15,661 nt of DNA from a virus. Position numbers and translations under genes: made by a program. Under the pieces are notes generated by a model. It made no database searches. It was not told the DNA's origin and saw only the letters and a program-made list of their open reading frames with translations. Each line of letters starts with the position of its first letter. The first letter of the stretch is position 1. Below, one piece after another: positions 1 to 8,114 of the stretch. The stretch lies in the UHGV virus genome UHGV-0232198; one strand, written 5' to 3'.

Positions 1-1524
1 ACAGGAAGCGTTGATCCACGCCCTGCAGGAAAAGCTGAGCAACCGGGAACGCGAAATAGACCATCTGCAGGCGCAACTGGATAAGCTGCGCCGGATGAAC
101 TTCGGCAGTCGTTCCGAAAAGGTATCCCGCCGTATCGCGCAGATGGAAGCTGACCTGAACCGGCTTCAGCAGGAAAGCGATGCCCTTACCGGTCGGGTTG
201 ATGATCCGGCGGTGCAGCGCCCGCTGCGTCAGACCCGCACCCGTAAACCGTTCCCTGAATCACTCCCCCGTGATGAAAAGCGGTTGTTCCCCACAGAGTC
301 CTGTTGCCCGGAGTGCGGAGGTTCGCTGAGCTACCTGGGTGAGGATGCCGCCGAACAGCTGGAGCTGATGCGCAGCGCCTTCCGGGTTATCCGTACGGTG
401 CGCGAAAAGCATGCCTGTCGTCGGTGCGATCGCATCGTTCAGGCCCCGGCGCCTTCGCGCCCCATCGAGCGGGGTATCGCCGGACCGGGACTGCTGGCCC
501 GTGTACTGGCGTCAAAGTATGCAGAACACACACCGCTGTATCGCCAGTCTGAAATATACGGCCGTCAGGGCGTGGAGCTGAGTCGCTCACTGCTGTCGGG
601 CTGGGTGGATGCGTGTTGTCGTCTGCTGGCACCGCTGGATGAAGCCCTTCAGGCCTATGTACTGACCGATGGCAAACTCCATGCCGACGATACGCCCGTC
701 CCGGTGCTGTTGCCAGGTAATAAGAAGACGAAAACCGGGCGGTTGTGGACGTATGTGCGTGATGACCGCAACGCCGGGTCAGTGCTGGCACCGGCAGTAT
801 GGTTCGCGTACAGCCCGGACAGAAAAGGCATCCATCCTCAGACCCATCTTGCCGGCTTCAGCGGTGTGCTGCAGGCGGATGCCTATGCGGGGTTCAATGA
901 GCTCTACCGTGACGGCCATATAAAGGAAGCCGCATGCTGGGCCCATGCCCGGCGTAAAATCCACGATGTTCACGTTCGCACTCCCTCAGCGCTCACAGAT
1001 GAAGCGCTGAAACGGATCGGCGAGTTGTATGCCATCGAAGCGGATATCAGGGGAATGCCGGCAGAACAGCGGCTTGCCGAACGGCAGTTGAAAACGAAAG
1101 CGCGTCTTAAATCACTGGAAAACTGGCTGCGTGAAAAAGTGAAAACCCTGTCGCGACACTCAGAGCTGGCAAAAGCGTTCACCTATGTACTGAACCAGTG
1201 GCAGGCGTTGACGTACTACGCAGACGACGGCTGGGCTGAAGCAGATAACAACATCGCTGAAAATGCGCTGCGGACGGTCAGTCTGGGACGTAAAAACTGG
1301 CTGTTCTTCGGCTCAGACCACGGTGGTGAGCGGGGAGCGCTGCTGTACAGTCTGATCGGGACGTGCAAACTGAATGGAGTAGATCCAGAACGCTACCTTC
1401 ACCATATCCTTGACGTCATTGCTGACTGGCCGGTAAAGCGGGTTGGTGAACTGCTGCCGTGGCGGGTTACTCTGCCAGCCTGACCAACTTCACTTCGTCA
1501 ATACGGTTCTCGCTATACGCTTAC
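1..1524. mobile_element. IS66-family insertion sequence, 3' portion (left part lies outside the window); right end proposed at 1524
   Basis: Contains a tnpC-like ORF. The top strand ends ...CGCTTAC at 1518-1524, whose reverse complement GTAAGCG is what I recall as the typical IS66-family terminus. The GC-rich IS body changes abruptly to AT-rich sequence after about 1525. Confidence 0.6.
2..1483 (+). CDS. tnpC: IS66-family transposase TnpC, 5'-partial (frame is open from the window start; the track's start at 11 is a TTG)
   Basis: N-terminal heptad/leucine-zipper-like region (LQAQLDKLRRMNFGSRSEK), zinc-finger motif CCPECGG...CRRCDRI, and a long C-terminal DDE-type domain; overall resemblance to IS66 TnpC from memory. 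Confidence 0.8.
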   Translation, partial: QEALIHALQEKLSNREREIDHLQAQLDKLRRMNFGSRSEKVSRRIAQMEADLNRLQQESDALTGRVDDPAVQRPLRQTRTRKPFPESLPRDEKRLFPTESCCPECGGSLSYLGEDAAEQLELMRSAFRVIRTVREKHACRRCDRIVQAPAPSRPIERGIAGPGLLARVLASKYAEHTPLYRQSEIYGRQGVELSRSLLSGWVDACCRLLAPLDEALQAYVLTDGKLHADDTPVPVLLPGNKKTKTGRLWTYVRDDRNAGSVLAPAVWFAYSPDRKGIHPQTHLAGFSGVLQADAYAGFNELYRDGHIKEAACWAHARRKIHDVHVRTPSALTDEALKRIGELYAIEADIRGMPAEQRLAERQLKTKARLKSLENWLREKVKTLSRHSELAKAFTYVLNQWQALTYYADDGWAEADNNIAENALRTVSLGRKNWLFFGSDHGGERGALLYSLIGTCKLNGVDPERYLHHILDVIADWPVKRVGELLPWRVTLPA

Positions 1525-1534
1525 GTTTAATGCT

Positions 1535-1756
1535 ATGCACGACACAATTGGGAATGCTAACGAAAACGGTAATGCCAGAGATGGGCATATCTATGTTATT
1601 GACACCTTTCTTTGGTACATGGCCCGATGCGGTTACACCTTGCAGAAATCAAGGAAAAATGTCGAATTTAAAGATATGCAGGATGACATTGAGCGCAGCA
1701 AAGAATGGCGGCGTGAGGCATTTTCTCGTGTTATTTCAGAACAGCACAAAGTCTAG
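1535..1756 (+). CDS. hypothetical small protein (73 aa); may be untranslated or a remnant next to the IS end
   Basis: ORF in an AT-rich segment directly after the proposed IS end; no convincing Shine-Dalgarno upstream; the frame is open back to the tnpC stop. Confidence 0.3.
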   Translation: MHDTIGNANENGNARDGHIYVIDTFLWYMARCGYTLQKSRKNVEFKDMQDDIERSKEWRREAFSRVISEQHKV

Positions 1757-1770
1757 TGATGGAGAGGAAT

Positions 1771-2079
1771 ATGGACGAATCAAGAAAGAAGTTTGAGGAA
1801 TACGTTGCCAAAAAATTGAAATTACCATTCGAGATGATAACCGAGGCAAGAAATGGTGATAGGTACTTCGCATTTTCAAGCATGGATATTCGTCACTCCT
1901 TAAATGAGTGGTGGACTTTATGGCAGGCATCGCGAGCAGCTATCGAGATTGAGCTGCAAAAGCCAAAGAAAGGCCCACTTCCCGGTGATTATCACATTGG
2001 CTATGACTCAGGTGCAGAATCGCAATACGAAAGCGATGTAGAGGCTATCCGCGCCGCTGGAATCAAAGTGAAGGAGTGA
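1771..2079 (+). CDS. hypothetical protein (about 102 aa from ATG 1771; the track's ORF starts at GTG 1756, with another ATG at 1759)
   Basis: GGAGAGG at 1761-1767 lies just upstream of ATG 1771; AT-rich codon usage differs from the flanking sequence; no recognisable motif. Confidence 0.45.
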   Translation: MDESRKKFEEYVAKKLKLPFEMITEARNGDRYFAFSSMDIRHSLNEWWTLWQASRAAIEIELQKPKKGPLPGDYHIGYDSGAESQYESDVEAIRAAGIKVKE

Positions 2080-2083
2080 GTAT

Positions 2084-2338
2084 ATGCCATTTATAAAATT
2101 AACCATGCAATGCAGCATCTATCAGCCACCAAGCACAGGCGTGATAGAAAGCACCAGAAGTGCATATGAGCCCTTGTACGTTAACTCTGACAACATCGAA
2201 ACCCTATTTGAGGCCGGGATTACGATTGTAAGAATGGCAAGTGGTGAGCGGTTCGATGTTATTGAGAAACCAGAAGCTATTTTGGCGTTAATTAATCCAT
2301 GCGTGCAGAAGGTGAGCAATGAGGAAACTAACGTTTGA
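2084..2338 (+). CDS. hypothetical protein (84 aa)
   Basis: Good RBS AAGGAG at 2071-2076 with 7 nt spacing to ATG 2084; the 3' end overlaps the ninB start by 20 nt. Confidence 0.45.
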   Translation: MPFIKLTMQCSIYQPPSTGVIESTRSAYEPLYVNSDNIETLFEAGITIVRMASGERFDVIEKPEAILALINPCVQKVSNEETNV

Positions 2339-2759
2339 ACTAAGAAGCCCCATTCATCAGCAGAACGCCATTCAAGCTATCCAGCAAATCCTTCCAGACC
2401 CAACAAAACCAATCGTAGTAAGCATTCAGGAACGCAACCGCAGCTTAGACCAGAATCGAAAGCTTTGGGCTTGCCTTGGTGACGTTTCGCGTCAGGTTGA
2501 ATGGCATGGTCGATGGCTGGATGCAGAAAGCTGGAAGTGCGTTTTTACAGCAGCATTAAAGCAGCAGGACGTTGTTCCTAACCTTGCCGGGAATGGTTTT
2601 GTGGTAATAGGCCAGTCAACCAGCAGGATGCGTGTAAGCGAATTTGCGGAGCTATTAGAGCTTATACAGGCATTCGGTACAGAACGTGGCGTTAAGTGGT
2701 CAGACGAAGCGCGACTGGCTCTTGAGTGGAAAGCGAGATGGGGAGATCGGGCAGCATGA
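2319..2759 (+). CDS. ninB: NinB-like protein (lambda NinB/Orf family recombination mediator)
   Basis: 146 aa; N-terminus [50 protein letters not shown] is nearly identical to my recollection of lambda NinB; RBS GGTGA upstream. Confidence 0.9.
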
Positions 2760-2929
2760 TGCGATGTTATCGGTGCGGTGAATGCAAAGAAGATAACCGC
2801 TTCCGACCAAATCAACCTTACTGGAATCGATGGTGTCTCCGGTGTGAAAGAACACCAACAGGGGTGTTACCACTACCGCAGGAAAAGGAGGACGTGTGGC
2901 GAGACAGCGACGAAGCATTACTCAAATAG
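2756..2929 (+). CDS. ninD: NinD-like small zinc-ribbon protein (57 aa)
   Basis: ATG 2756 overlaps the ninB stop (ATGA); RBS GGGAGA at 2741-2746; two CxxC pairs (CYRCGEC ... WCLRC); position and size match lambda ninD. Confidence 0.6.
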
Positions 2930-3072
2930 CGTTAGACAACCTGATTTTTACTCCTACCAAACGCACCAAATCCCGCAAGAAACCAATCCCCACAGAAAGC
3001 CAGGTAAAGACATTCGATTATGTCTACGGGCTGTTACAGGCCAAATGGAACCGCATGAGGAAAACAAGGTGA
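2896..3072 (+). CDS. ninE: NinE-like small basic protein (58 aa, GTG start; absent from the ORF track)
   Basis: Strong RBS AGGAGG at 2886-2891 is 4 nt upstream of GTG 2896; translation (M)[41 protein letters not shown]... resembles lambda NinE as I recall it; its stop overlaps the ninF start (GGTGA). Confidence 0.5.
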
Positions 3073-3239
3073 TTGACCCAAATCGAAGTTACGAACAAGA
3101 AAGCGTCGAGCGAGCTTTAACGTGCGCTAACTGCGGTCAGAAGCTGCATGTGCTGGAAGTTCACGTGTGCTCAGATTGCTGCGCAGAACTGATGAGCGAT
3201 CCGAATAGCTCAATGTACGAGGAAGAAGGCGATGAGTGA
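3069..3239 (+). CDS. ninF: NinF-like small Cys-rich protein (56 aa from GTG 3069; alternative ATG at 3045)
   Basis: C-terminal sequence [48 protein letters not shown] matches my recollection of lambda NinF; RBS GAGGA at 3057-3061; this is the last third of the 153-aa track ORF 2778-3239. Confidence 0.6.
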   Translation: MIDPNRSYEQESVERALTCANCGQKLHVLEVHVCSDCCAELMSDPNSSMYEEEGDE

Positions 3240-5228: not shown

Positions 5229-5750
5229 ATGCTAAGCGAAACAGCGAAAGATATCGCAGGATATGAAGGTAAATACTCCGTAACTACTGATGGCCGCGTT
5301 TATTCTCATTCGAGAGTTGATTCTCGTGGAAGGTTACAGAAGGGCAGATGGCTTAAGCCTGTTAATCATAGTGATGGTTACTTGTATGTAAATCTCCGCG
5401 ACAAAGGAGCACTTAAAAAACATTACATTCACAGGTTAGTGGCGGCTGCATTCATTGATAATCCAAACTCGCTTCCGCAGGTAAACCACATAAATGGAAT
5501 CAAGTCTGACAACAGAGTAGATAATCTTGAGTGGGTTACTGGCTGCCAGAATATGGTCCATGCAAGCAAGTCAGGATTGCTAAACCCAATCAGTGGTGAG
5601 CGCCACTATTGTGCAAAACTCACTACTGAGCAAGTGAAAGAAATACGTGCGTGCAAATCAATGTCGCAGCGTGAAATGGCGAGAATGTACGGCGTATCAA
5701 AAGCAACAATTGCAGGAATTCTTAACTATAAGACATGGGTTATTTATTAA
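5229..5750 (+). CDS. HNH homing endonuclease (NUMOD4-like N-terminus, HNH core, C-terminal helix-turn-helix)
   Basis: 173 aa; GYEGKYSVTTDGRVYS (NUMOD4-like), HINGIKSDNRVDNLEWVT (HNH H-N-G...N...N-L core), C-terminal TTEQVKEIRACKSMSQREMARMYGVSKATIAGILNYKTW (HTH-like); strong RBS AAGGAG at 5217-5222; AT-rich relative to neighbours. Confidence 0.85.
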   Translation: MLSETAKDIAGYEGKYSVTTDGRVYSHSRVDSRGRLQKGRWLKPVNHSDGYLYVNLRDKGALKKHYIHRLVAAAFIDNPNSLPQVNHINGIKSDNRVDNLEWVTGCQNMVHASKSGLLNPISGERHYCAKLTTEQVKEIRACKSMSQREMARMYGVSKATIAGILNYKTWVIY

Positions 5751-5977
5751 CTAATTAATTAAGAGCTCCCATTACAGGATGCATTTATGAGTGCATCCAT
5801 TAATGGTCGTTAAATGCGATTGATATGGATACTGCGCAAACAGTATCCCTAATGGTCTCCTCGCGACAACTGTGACGAGCAAACAGCGTTACCGCAAAAT
5901 GTAGCCTGGATTTGTTCTATCAGTAATCGACCTTATTCCTAATTAAATAGAGCAAATCCCCTTATTGGGGGTAAGAC

Positions 5978-6301
5978 ATGAAGATGCCAGAAAAACATGA
6001 CCTGTTAGCCGCCATTCTCGCGGCAAAGGAACAAGGCATCGGGGCAATCCTTGCGTTTGCAATGGCGTACCTTCGCGGCAGATATAATGGCGGTGCGTTT
6101 ACAAAAACAGTAATCGACGCAACGATGTGCGCCATTATCGCCTGGTTCATTCGTGACCTTCTCGACTTCGCAGGGCTAAGTAGCAATCTCGCTTATATAA
6201 CGAGCGTGTTCATCGGCTACATCGGTACTGACTCGATTGGTTCGCTTATCAAACGCTTCGCTGCTAAAAAAGCCGGAGTAGAAGATGGTGGAAATCAATA
6301 A
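5978..6301 (+). CDS. S: Class I holin S (lambda type; dual-start S107/S105)
   Basis: 107 aa; [45 protein letters not shown]... is essentially lambda S; three hydrophobic segments; Met1-Lys2-Met3 dual start. Confidence 0.95.
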
Positions 6302-6761
6302 TCAACGTAAGGCGTTCCTCGATATGCTGGCGTGGTCAGAGGGAACTGATAATGGACGTCAGAAAACCAGAAATCATGGTTATGACGTCATTGTTGGCGG
6401 AGAGCTATTCACTGATTACTCCGATCACCCTCGCAAACTTGTCACGCTAAACCCAAAGCTCAAATCAACAGCCGCCGGACGTTACCAGCTTCTTTCACGT
6501 TGGTGGGATGCCTACCGCAAGCAACTTGGCCTGAAAGACTTCTCTCCCAAAAGCCAGGACGCAGTGGCATTGCAGCAGATTAAAGAGCGTGGCGCTTTAC
6601 CGATGATTGATCGCGGTGATATTCGTCAGGCTATCGACCGTTGCAGCAATATCTGGGCTTCACTTCCGGGCGCTGGTTATGGTCAGTTCGAGCATAAGGC
6701 TGACAGCCTGATTGCAAAATTCAAAGAAGCAGGCGGAACGGTCAGAGAGATTGAGGTATGA
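6285..6761 (+). CDS. R: Endolysin R (lambda-type lytic transglycosylase)
   Basis: 158 aa; [39 protein letters not shown]... matches lambda R; start overlaps the end of S. Confidence 0.95.
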
Positions 6762-7225
6762 GCAGAGTCACCGCGATTATCTCCGCTCTGGTTATCTGCA
6801 TCATCGTCTTCCTGTCATGGGCGGTTAATCATTACCGTGATAACGCCATGACCTACAAAGAGCAGCGCGATAAAAAAGTCAGTGAACTGAAGCAGGCGAC
6901 CGCCACCATTACTGACATGCAGCAGCGCCAGCGTACTGCTGATGCACTTGATGCTAAATACACGAAGGAGTTGGCTGATGCGAAAGCTGAAAATGATGCT
7001 CTTCGGCGCAAGCTTGATAATGGTGGCAGGGTGCTCGTCAAAGGAAAATGCCCTGTGCCATCCTCAGCCGAAACCTCCAGCGCCTCCGGCATGGGCAATG
7101 ATGCCACCGTCGAACTCTCTCCAGTTGCTGGACGAAACGTTCTCGATATCCGGGACGGAATTATCCGCGACCAAACAGCACTGAGAACGCTTCAGGAATA
7201 CATCAGGACGCAATGCCTTCGATGA
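6758..7225 (+). CDS. Rz: Spanin inner-membrane subunit Rz (i-spanin)
   Basis: 155 aa; N-terminal TM segment [30 protein letters not shown] is lambda-like, the C-terminal half differs from lambda Rz; ATGA overlap with R. Confidence 0.9.
6978..7184 (+). CDS. Rz1: Spanin outer-membrane lipoprotein subunit Rz1 (o-spanin), nested in the +1 frame of Rz
   Basis: RBS AAGGAG at 6965-6970, ATG 6978; [19 protein letters not shown] has a signal peptide plus lipobox (VAGC); proline-rich [11 protein letters not shown]; entirely inside Rz in another frame, as in lambda. Confidence 0.75.
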
Positions 7226-7398
7226 TAGCGATAATTTTACTCATCATCCTTCACATCTGGCTCTGTAGACAGGGTGATGATCACTTCTGGAGTGAATCCA
7301 GATTAAACATCTCATTGCTGATGCTTGATATTGAGCATCTGGCGCGCGGTAAGGGGCTGCGTTGAGATAAGAGCCAGTCATTACAAATACCAGGATTT

Positions 7399-7423
7399 AG
7401 CCTCGCATTTGCGGGGCTTTTTT
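7399..7423 (+). terminator. Putative rho-independent terminator downstream of Rz
   Basis: 8-bp stem GCCTCGC.../...GCGGGGCT with one G-U wobble, 4-nt loop, followed by a T run (7418-7423). Confidence 0.45.
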
Positions 7424-7571
7424 ACATCTGCAGTAAACCGCGCATCGCAGCGCGTAACAATCCCGAGTCTTTCAGAAAGCTGAGCCTGAGAATTGCCGTA
7501 TATGGTGGCGACCATCTCGGGGACGGCTTTTCTGTGCGAACAGGCTCATCTTTCTAAAAGGTAAAGACGCA

Positions 7572-8114
7572 ATGAACTACCCAACCGTTGTTAACGATAT
7601 AGATTTCAGAGACCTAATTTTTGTAGCAAACAACGATCCGGTTACAGATTCTTTTATGGTGGCAAAAGCATTTGGAAAGCTGCCGAAGAACGTGGTTCGT
7701 GACATTGAACGAACCATAGAAGCTTGCCCTCCTGAGTTTGATACAAAGCTCAACTTTGAGCTTTGCTATAAAAACAATGAGTTACAGAATGGTAAGCCGC
7801 AAAAATTCTACCGTCTCCGCAAGGATGGGTTGATGCTTTTGGTTATGTCCTACACCAAAAAAGAAGCAATGCGTATCAAAATTGCTTACATCAACGCATT
7901 CAACTGGATGTACGCCATGCTTCAGGTTGGTCATCGTCAATTTGAAGAAGAGAGAAATGCCGTAATGCTGGAGTACATGAAAGAGAAGGATGTTGCCAGC
8001 ATGTCAGGCCGCCTGCTTAATCGCTGGGGAAAAATTAAGAAGCCTCAGCTACTGGCGAGAATTGAACGCCTTGAACAGCACGGGCAAACCGTAATCCCCG
8101 GACTCACCAATTAA
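7572..8114 (+). CDS. rha: Rha-family phage regulatory protein
   Basis: 180 aa; N-terminal region DLIFVANNDPVTDSFMVAKAFGKLPKNVVRDIERTIE...FYRLRKDGLMLLVMSYTKKEAMRIKIAYINAF resembles the Rha domain from memory; its position between lysis and packaging genes matches P22-like phages. Confidence 0.75.
   Translation: MNYPTVVNDIDFRDLIFVANNDPVTDSFMVAKAFGKLPKNVVRDIERTIEACPPEFDTKLNFELCYKNNELQNGKPQKFYRLRKDGLMLLVMSYTKKEAMRIKIAYINAFNWMYAMLQVGHRQFEEERNAVMLEYMKEKDVASMSGRLLNRWGKIKKPQLLARIERLEQHGQTVIPGLTN

Follow-up and report, generated by a model that had tools for sequence, protein, structure and literature searches.

Described counterparts of the locus

The ren/nin region of bacteriophage lambda (ninA-ninI) is non-essential, variable and mosaic, and the segment considered here occupies the equivalent part of the PR operon, after the replication genes and before ninB. 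This segment comprises three consecutive + strand open reading frames (ORF1, ORF2 and ORF3; Table 1) in the virus genome UHGV-0232198, an ENA metagenome contig (ERZ27317282, k141_81406) of 15,661 nucleotides (nt) that is referred to below, in its full length, as the window. An original prediction made from the DNA alone had placed these ORFs between the end of an insertion sequence (IS) and ninB, where they were indeed located, and had treated them as unknown genes of an AT-rich cassette. We find that the segment holds accessory genes of a P22/lambda-like prophage and forms the left end of its nin region, and that it represents an ordinary variable phage slot and no new system. For anatomy and function together we estimate the probability of this explanation at approximately 0.55, a figure that is a compromise between the practically certain anatomy and family assignments of the cassette and the tentative suggestion that its intact genes supply dispensable delayed-early accessory functions of the ren/nin kind.

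Each gene of the segment has described counterparts. SwrD/FlbD is a flagellar-operon protein of Bacillota, Actinomycetota and spirochaetes, the crystal structures of which show an antiparallel pair of strands and, after a 3_10 turn, three further antiparallel strands and a terminal helix, and its structural relatives are RemA, ComK and AgrA-LytTR; no settled role has yet been assigned to SwrD itself (2026 preprint, PMC13232269). ORF3 keeps the core of this protein, its Asn-x3-Ile/Leu-Glu pattern and, in the b4-b5 region, its Gly and Glu, but differs in being located in the early operons of temperate Enterobacteria phages, in hosts without SwrD, in having a longer hairpin, in the replacement of Pro-Asp and Glu23, and in its short C-terminal tail, which in SwrD is long and charged. 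ORFs of phages HK022, Sf6 (gp49) and ZF40 (gp19) are found in the same position as ORF3, after replication genes and before ninB, and there is no essential difference between these loci and the present one, in which the upstream gene is cut by the IS. The Phage_phiTE_015 family (PF26207), whose three conserved segments are shared by ORF2, includes Sf6 gp48, the 933W L0091-type ORFs of Shiga toxin (Stx) phages and GALLYPH_39 of phage Gally, and the IS shows no noted difference from other IS66-family insertion sequences. The families of all three genes are thus already catalogued (PHROG 15705 for ORF1, PF26207 and PHROG 343 for ORF2, PF06289 and PHROG 8458 for ORF3), and ORF2 and ORF3, which are intact, have identical counterparts in phages sequenced long ago, so that neither the designation of the ORFs as unknown nor the statement that none contains a recognizable motif could be maintained. 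RefSeq names on the homologues include "flagellar FlbD family protein" and "phiTE_015 family protein"; NCBIfam yielded no match for any of the proteins. Homology to replication proteins or to known nin housekeeping proteins, which had been named as an outcome contrary to the original prediction, was found in none of ORF1 to ORF3.

The cassette lies at the left end of the nin region

The position of the cassette had initially been equated with that of ren in lambda. The Escherichia coli draft genome GCA_900449085.1 (locus L007) contains the same prophage arrangement as the window in complete form, with the gene order O, a DnaB-type helicase, a lambda-like ninA/tR2 sequence, a 55-amino acid (aa) gene, the split ORF1 gene, ORF2, ORF3 and ninB. 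The ninA/tR2 sequence (ATGACCATCTACATCACTGAG..., stem, T-run; L007 5177-5237) follows directly after the helicase gene, and the tR2-like terminator (L007 5203-5237) is formed by a 10-bp stem followed by TTTTTTATTGG; tR2 has been annotated at the corresponding place in Sf6. The cassette, being preceded by this tR2-like terminator, is the left end of the nin region and not the equivalent of the lambda ren position, ren being located upstream of tR2. The more general view that the interval from the replication genes to ninB serves lambdoid phages as a variable slot for accessory genes was borne out, given that related prophages and phages carry differing sets of small genes in the same slot.

Synteny was examined in 19 IMG/VR loci with close ORF3 homologues and in other loci, which were scanned with hidden Markov models (HMMs) derived from the family alignments; the 24 loci counted here include the window, its copy with precomputed Pfam annotation (L008) and L007. 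In every one of the 24 loci with a close ORF3 homologue the order was PF26207-family gene, ORF3 and ninB, and the 20-nt overlap between the end of ORF3 and the start of ninB that is present in the window was likewise universal (24/24). The PF26207-family gene, which varied between 63 and 126 aa and was represented by many alleles, ended 4 nt before ORF3 in 22 of the 24 loci, and the same family was present without ORF3 in other prophages.

Mosaic breakpoints were observed in the BLAST matches both within and between the cassette genes. In the prophage of E. coli G3 (L001), the DNA is identical up to ...ATCAAAGTGAAGGAGTGAG, beyond which a different 63-aa hydrophobic ORF replaces ORF3. Since the junction ATCAAAGTGAAGGAGTGAG precedes different genes, the stretch that encodes the C-terminus of ORF2 and includes the next ribosome-binding site (RBS) constitutes a module junction, which resembles the 'boundary sequences' annotated in Sf6. 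The alternative cargo ORF of E. coli G3 (L001 5558-5749) is unrelated to ORF3, contains two hydrophobic stretches and is unannotated in RefSeq. A second junction, of the form (T)GA(C/T)GGAGAGGAAT(G)ATG and nearly the same at each place, was noted before ORF2 (window 1757-1773) and before the ORF1-family gene of E. coli G3 (L001 4898-4914) and of L007, and it resembles a recurrent boundary or linker sequence as used for module exchange in lambdoid phages.

ORF1 is a gene fragment created by an IS66-family insertion

Megablast searches against complete E. coli genomes retrieved prophages in which the DNA from window position 1525 onward continues leftward into an intact gene of 107 aa, as in E. 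coli G3 (L001 4909-5232) and E. coli 19KM2326N (L003 4909-5232). A three-way alignment demonstrated that the sequences are identical from position 1525 on and unrelated before it, with the break located exactly at 1524/1525, which coincides with the terminal inverted repeat of the IS (...GCTTAC, ending at 1524). Pfam matches within the IS comprised DDE_Tnp_IS66 (E 3.4e-104), zf-IS66, LZ_Tnp_IS66 and the IS66 C-terminal element. The full IS is visible in L007 (approximately 5550-7998, about 2.5 kb), where it encodes tnpA, tnpB and tnpC and has inverted ends, GTAAGCG... on the left and ...CGCTTAC on the right (left end GTAAGCGTACAGCG..., right end ...CGCTATACGCTTAC). The octamer GTTTAATG occurs in L007 immediately before the left and immediately after the right IS end, and it is present in a single copy at the uninterrupted site of E. 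coli 19KM2326N (...GATGTGTTTAATGCTATGCAC). A duplication of 8 bp is a signature of the IS66 family, and the element combines the tnpA/tnpB/tnpC gene set, the GTAAGCG... terminal repeats and the 8-bp duplication by which that family is recognized.

ORF1 is, on these grounds, the dead 3' fragment of a gene split by IS66-family transposition: the similarity breaks at 1524/1525, GTTTAATG flanks the element in L007, and the intact gene exists elsewhere. The suspicion that ORF1 lacks an RBS and might not be real was confirmed, and the lack is explained by its ATG (1535) being the internal codon Met35 of the IS-cut 107-aa gene; the 5' stump of that gene (42 aa) remains to the left of the IS in L007. 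The remnant is 99-100% identical to the intact copies, and these 0-1 nt differences indicate that the insertion was recent. It is also a rare allele: the IS-gene junction was present in none of the 5,426 complete E. coli genomes searched, and its known occurrences are a single draft genome and a small number of metagenome contigs. The intact ORF1-family protein matched PHROG 15705 (E 4.5e-52), annotated as function unknown, and had no Pfam or NCBIfam match; the family numbers 253 homologues, including 100-aa versions such as gp50 of Klebsiella phage BUCT610.

ORF2 is an intact gene of the PF26207 family with exchangeable cassettes

The precomputed Pfam annotation of the contig placed PF26207 (Phage_phiTE_015) at L008 1771-2079, and ORF2 also matched PHROG 343, of unknown function (E 5e-28). 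A total of 302 ORF2 homologues were retrieved, every listed one of which carries PF26207, and all of them begin with MDESRK. Relatives were present in 181 phage records, mostly of lambdoid phages of Escherichia (including Stx phages), Salmonella and Shigella; among the listed records these were labelled 'hypothetical' or not at all, save for Gally ('similar to P22 EaD protein') and ST64T ('Orf-86'). The protein from Gally, GALLYPH_39, is 100% identical to ORF2.

The family alignment revealed three near-invariant segments, namely an N-terminal MDESRKxFE, a central W..WQASRAAIEIE and a C-terminal IRAAGIKVKE, between which sit two unrelated variable cassettes. Seven types of the first cassette (V1) and six of the second (V2) were distinguished among the ORF2 matches, in 12 combinations. 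The allele in the window joins a first cassette of the Stx-phage/mEp213 type to a second of the HK022 type, with which the BLAST breakpoints at approximately 1921-1943 agree. The AlphaFold2 (AF2) model of ORF2 (predicted local distance difference test, pLDDT, 74.5) is helical; its central helix is followed by a short strand, and a helix-strand unit forms its C-terminus. Searches of the PDB with the single sequence and with a profile produced chance matches only, and Foldseek returned nothing significant.

ORF2 is an intact and real gene, and the same is held for ORF3, because both possess RBSs, relatives at the protein level with conserved motifs, confident structure models, and Pfam and PHROG families. 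A coding signal in related genomes, the absence of which would have counted against the original prediction, was accordingly found in the form of family conservation. It might still be proposed that the ORFs are chance open frames in a non-coding spacer, in keeping with the missing RBS of ORF1 and the small number of substitutions available for a test of selection; yet ORF1 is a fragment of a conserved 107-aa gene, and for ORF2 and ORF3 the proposal is refuted by family conservation (hundreds and a dozen divergent relatives, respectively) along with their RBSs, models and families, so that we regard it as having virtually no chance of being correct.

A divergent SwrD/FlbD fold in ORF3

Several lines of sequence comparison and modelling place ORF3 in the SwrD/FlbD fold family, of which it is a divergent member. 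ORF3 scored 25.5 bits against Pfam FlbD (PF06289), relative to a gathering cut-off of 24.7 (E 9.7e-6), and 15 of 16 members of the ORF3 family matched PF06289 independently (best E 1.9e-8). When the phage family was aligned using hhalign with 62 genuine FlbD proteins, taken from 80 loci of flagellated Bacillota, Thermotogota and others, a probability of 95.6% was obtained (E 1.1e-8), with ORF3 residues 29-72 aligned to FlbD residues 10-53. The AF2 model of ORF3 (pLDDT 83, core >90) contains strands b1 and b2, a 3_10 turn, strands b3, b4 and b5, and a C-terminal helix, which is the element order of the SwrD crystal structures, and it shares the SwrD core of about 48 residues. Foldseek comparison of the model with the PDB gave nothing significant, and PDB sequence searches with ORF3, whether by single sequence or by profile, gave chance matches only.

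The residue map from hhalign indicated that N34, I38, E39 and T47 of ORF3 correspond to N15, I19, E20 and T28 of FlbD. In the SwrD hexamer, the Asn15-x3-Leu/Ile19 motif bonds neighbouring subunits at the centre of the ring (PMC13232269); in the phage family I38 is invariant, and the Asn is present in most members, not all. ORF3 is probably a homo-oligomeric ring, as judged from the model and this motif, and would be a non-enzymatic binding or adaptor protein. Its b1-b2 hairpin is about 19 residues longer than that of SwrD. The surface PDT motif of the b3-b4 loop, which in SwrD is proposed to serve partner binding (PMC13232269), reads G45-I46-T47 in ORF3, so that Pro26 and Asp27 are lost and only the Thr is kept, and Glu23 is replaced by F42.

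The structural neighbours of ORF3 include RemA and LytTR, as is the case for SwrD, and ORF3 could in principle form a DNA-binding ring of the RemA/LytTR type, which would control transcription or organize phage or host DNA in early infection. The DNA-binding Arg of RemA is carried on a helical insertion between b3 and b4 (PMC13232269), but the b3-b4 turn of ORF3 consists of three residues, and the helical insertion is consequently absent. ORF3 is also acidic (pI 4.5, net charge -5.5), and the fusion of an FlbD-like domain to a Ren-like winged helix-turn-helix in the protein P0137, described below, differs by about 167 nt from the two-gene arrangement of locus L094 and may be a deletion artefact. 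A DNA-binding ring is hence considered distinctly improbable.

ORF3 relatives occur in phage early operons

Relatives of ORF3 were found in 12 phage records only. HK022 contains an ORF (33641-33892; 'HK022 gene 60' in a note of the Sf6 record) with 100% identity to ORF3; ORF3 is furthermore 92% identical to Sf6 gp49 and 40% identical to gp19 of Pectobacterium phage ZF40, and it shares 35-41% identity with ORFs of ZF40, several Klebsiella phages and a siphovirus from bat faeces. An exhaustive HMMER search of 1.84 billion representatives recovered only 14 ORF3 clusters at the 50% identity level, and a word-index homologue search retrieved four near-identical proteins only. In the families of both ORF2 and ORF3, members down to 30-45% identity retain the length and motifs.

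No flagellar neighbourhood of an ORF3 homologue was seen among 30-odd loci, all of which were early operons of temperate phages or prophages, and SwrD itself is not found in Escherichia (PMC13232269). As ORF3 never occurs in a flagellar context, the name 'flagellar protein', which is the label of its family PHROG 8458, is a homology label only and not a function. The distant FlbD-like genes also lie in phage operons, that of ZF40 after DnaB-type and theta-like genes, that of Klebsiella phage RAH1 immediately downstream of a winged-helix gene of the Ren type (E 5e-8 in BLASTP against lambda Ren), and that of the bat-faeces phage in the PL operon after N. In the record of Klebsiella phage vB_Kpn_RAH1 (L010 3202-3725), the FlbD-like ORF17 is labelled 'exclusion protein ren', and the true Ren-like gene is the overlapping upstream ORF16; the label of ORF17 is likely an annotation slip.

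One alternative takes the homology at its word, with ORF3 acting on the flagellar motor (MotA/MotB stators) of the infected or lysogenic cell and so altering motility, and perhaps blocking flagellotropic phages. E. coli possesses MotA/MotB, and the resemblance of ORF3 to FlbD/SwrD in sequence and predicted fold would suit such an activity. Loss of SwrD in Bacillus subtilis lowers motor torque, and MotA was the top in-silico partner (PMC13232269), both of which could be cited for a motor target. Against this, the PDT surface motif is not kept in ORF3, no phage homologue is located near flagellar genes, and the gene resides in the lytic early operon and not in a position expressed during lysogeny. 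Sf6, furthermore, infects Shigella, which is non-motile. An effect on the flagellar motor is therefore judged highly improbable.

Two proteins in which an FlbD-like domain is joined to another sequence were recorded. P0128 (120 aa, from four independent contigs) combines the domain with a tail similar to the C-terminus of ORF2 (BLASTP E 2e-5), and P0137 combines a Ren-like winged helix-turn-helix with it. The match of P0137 in locus L094 extends over 617 nt for 150 residues and involves two reading frames, which suggests that a deletion of about 167 nt in a two-gene arrangement gave rise to P0137; among the relatives of its N-terminal part, most are without an FlbD-like gene. Both fusions look like deletion or boundary-recombination chimeras. 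The C-terminus of another FlbD-like protein, P0126 (...DEVDIPDELMEVGE), matches the end of a 121-aa protein (...DEVDIPDELMEATR) encoded at L033 3639-4004, just upstream of another FlbD-like gene, and C-terminal tails seem to have been exchanged between neighbouring genes in this region, which further weakens a reading of the fusions as functional links.

Expression and possible function of ORF2 and ORF3

No promoter-like site was detected between window positions 1300 and 2900, where 2.4 were expected in shuffled sequences, and the two weak terminator hairpins in the same interval are no excess over the 1.6 expected. The stop-to-start spacings of 14, 4 and -20 nt fit co-transcription and translational coupling. 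The segment is thus not a moron in the strict sense, as had been proposed, having no promoter of its own, no terminator above chance, and genes packed for translational coupling. ORF2 and ORF3 would instead be transcribed from PR, within the delayed-early operon, and as this transcription would cross the upstream tR2-like terminator, their expression would depend on N antitermination. The IS has the orientation of the PR operon and its insertion site lies between the replication genes and the genes from ninB to Q; read-out from it might add to the expression of ORF2 and ORF3.

Deletions of the nin5 type remove the nin region of lambda and leave the phage viable, on which account ORF2 and ORF3 are taken to be dispensable; this dispensability and the dependence on N are both carried over from lambda biology. 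The two proteins would act on the host or on a competing phage, with neither a replication role nor a true flagellar one, and it is to this functional part of the explanation that the tentative grading given at the outset applies.

Nothing was found in favour of the idea that these are anti-defence or host-takeover genes, which keeps the standing of a conjecture; PADLOC searches at E values up to 0.1 provided no match for the intact ORF1-family protein, ORF2 or ORF3. In lambda, Ren protects against Rex exclusion. ORF2 and/or ORF3 might be anti-defence or anti-exclusion factors comparable to Ren, considering that the cassette is situated in the same variable early region as ren, that the cassettes of ORF2 are shuffled as in proteins which track variable targets, and that Ren-like genes adjoin FlbD-like genes in some phages. 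There is, however, no sequence relation to lambda Ren, which itself matches PHROG 142 at E 1.6e-41, a family unmatched by ORF1, ORF2 or ORF3; PADLOC was negative, although it covers defence and not anti-defence; and recombination at conserved boundary sequences, a general feature of lambdoid phages, would by itself suffice to explain the mosaicism. A Ren-like role is on balance unlikely.

A more elaborate version would pair an ORF3 ring with ORF2 in an early module of two proteins that binds to a variable target of the host or of a rival phage, as an anti-exclusion or host-takeover device, in which the ORF3 ring would be the multivalent scaffold and the exchangeable cassettes of ORF2 would confer specificity. 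We consider such a device very unlikely; if it were true, it would offer a first handle on a role of the SwrD fold outside the flagellum.

Our preferred explanation, that of an ordinary nin-region slot with accessory functions, has to be set against several points that weaken it. The literature searched on phage FlbD, PF26207, phiTE_015, L0091, Sf6p48/49 and ren/Rex yielded no function record for any of the three families. The Pfam score of ORF3 taken singly is borderline, at 0.8 bit over the cut-off, and the ring proposed for this protein rests on a monomer model and one conserved motif. Between the ORF3 genes of the window and of Sf6 there were 4 synonymous and 7 non-synonymous substitutions, and with 0-11 differences per close pair there are too few to show purifying selection. 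P0128 and P0137, which were considered as Rosetta-stone proof of a functional link, were downgraded to leads. Finally, the IS may either be polar on the downstream ORF2, ORF3, ninB and Q, and by its effect on Q cripple the prophage, or be a source of read-out transcription.

With regard to annotation, ORF1 should be recorded as an IS-disrupted pseudogene, the name 'flagellar protein' of ORF3 should not be read as a function, and the cassette should be assigned to the nin region downstream of tR2. The point of interest is the presence of a SwrD/FlbD-fold protein in temperate phages of bacteria without SwrD, where, in enteric phages, it is always coupled to a cassette-shuffled PF26207 gene.

Base composition and surroundings of the cassette

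The cassette had been described as clearly richer in AT than the IS and the nin genes. The difference is real but modest: the GC content of the cassette is 43.6%, relative to 58.6% for the IS part and 48.8% for the phage part of the window, and in windows of 814 bp (mean 48.9%, standard deviation 2.8) 5% were equal to or below the cassette, with a minimum elsewhere in the phage of 41.6%, lower than the cassette itself. Repeats within the cassette were at chance level only, and an Rfam scan of the window identified no RNA family.

The gene content to the right of the cassette is that of a lambdoid, P22-like prophage (Table 1).

Table 1. Features of the window in and around the three-ORF cassette
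Feature	Position (nt)	Strand	Remarks
IS66-family element, right-hand part	1-1524	+	tnpC transposase ORF enters from the window start, stop at 1483
Right copy of 8-bp target-site duplication, GTTTAATG	1525-1532		IS insertion
3' remnant of 107-aa phage gene (PHROG 15705)	1525-1756	+	3' two-thirds of the gene; pseudogene fragment, without RBS
ORF1	1535-1756	+	73 aa
Shine-Dalgarno GGAGAGG of ORF2	1761-1767	+	Read from sequence
ORF2	1771-2079	+	102 aa from the conserved ATG 1771; 107 aa from GTG 1756, where the ORF listing starts it
Shine-Dalgarno AAGGAG of ORF3	2071-2076	+	Within the last ORF2 codons; part of the conserved module junction
ORF3	2084-2338	+	84 aa; start ATG 2084
ninB	2319-2759	+	146 aa; Orf-type recombination mediator; Pfam NinB E 4.5e-54; right border of the cassette
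nin genes			Right of the cassette: ninB, NinF (called in L007), YbcO, RusA, NinH
Late control and lysis genes			Right of the cassette: Q-type antiterminator, holin, unannotated 158-aa ORF in endolysin position, Rz-type lysis gene
Packaging genes			Right of the cassette: P22-type gp3 small terminase, large terminase

After ninB, window positions 2726-3239 contain several overlapping small ORFs, including a Cys-rich ORF of 67 aa (2726-2929) and a 58-aa ORF (2896-3072) that we presume to be similar to lambda NinE; the NinF call (PF05810) at L007 9511-9705 corresponds to window positions of approximately 3045-3239. The interval from the Q antiterminator to the holin is a frequent site of cargo in lambdoid phages, and in the window it contains a homing-endonuclease-type gene (NUMOD4/HNH_3), at 5229-5750.

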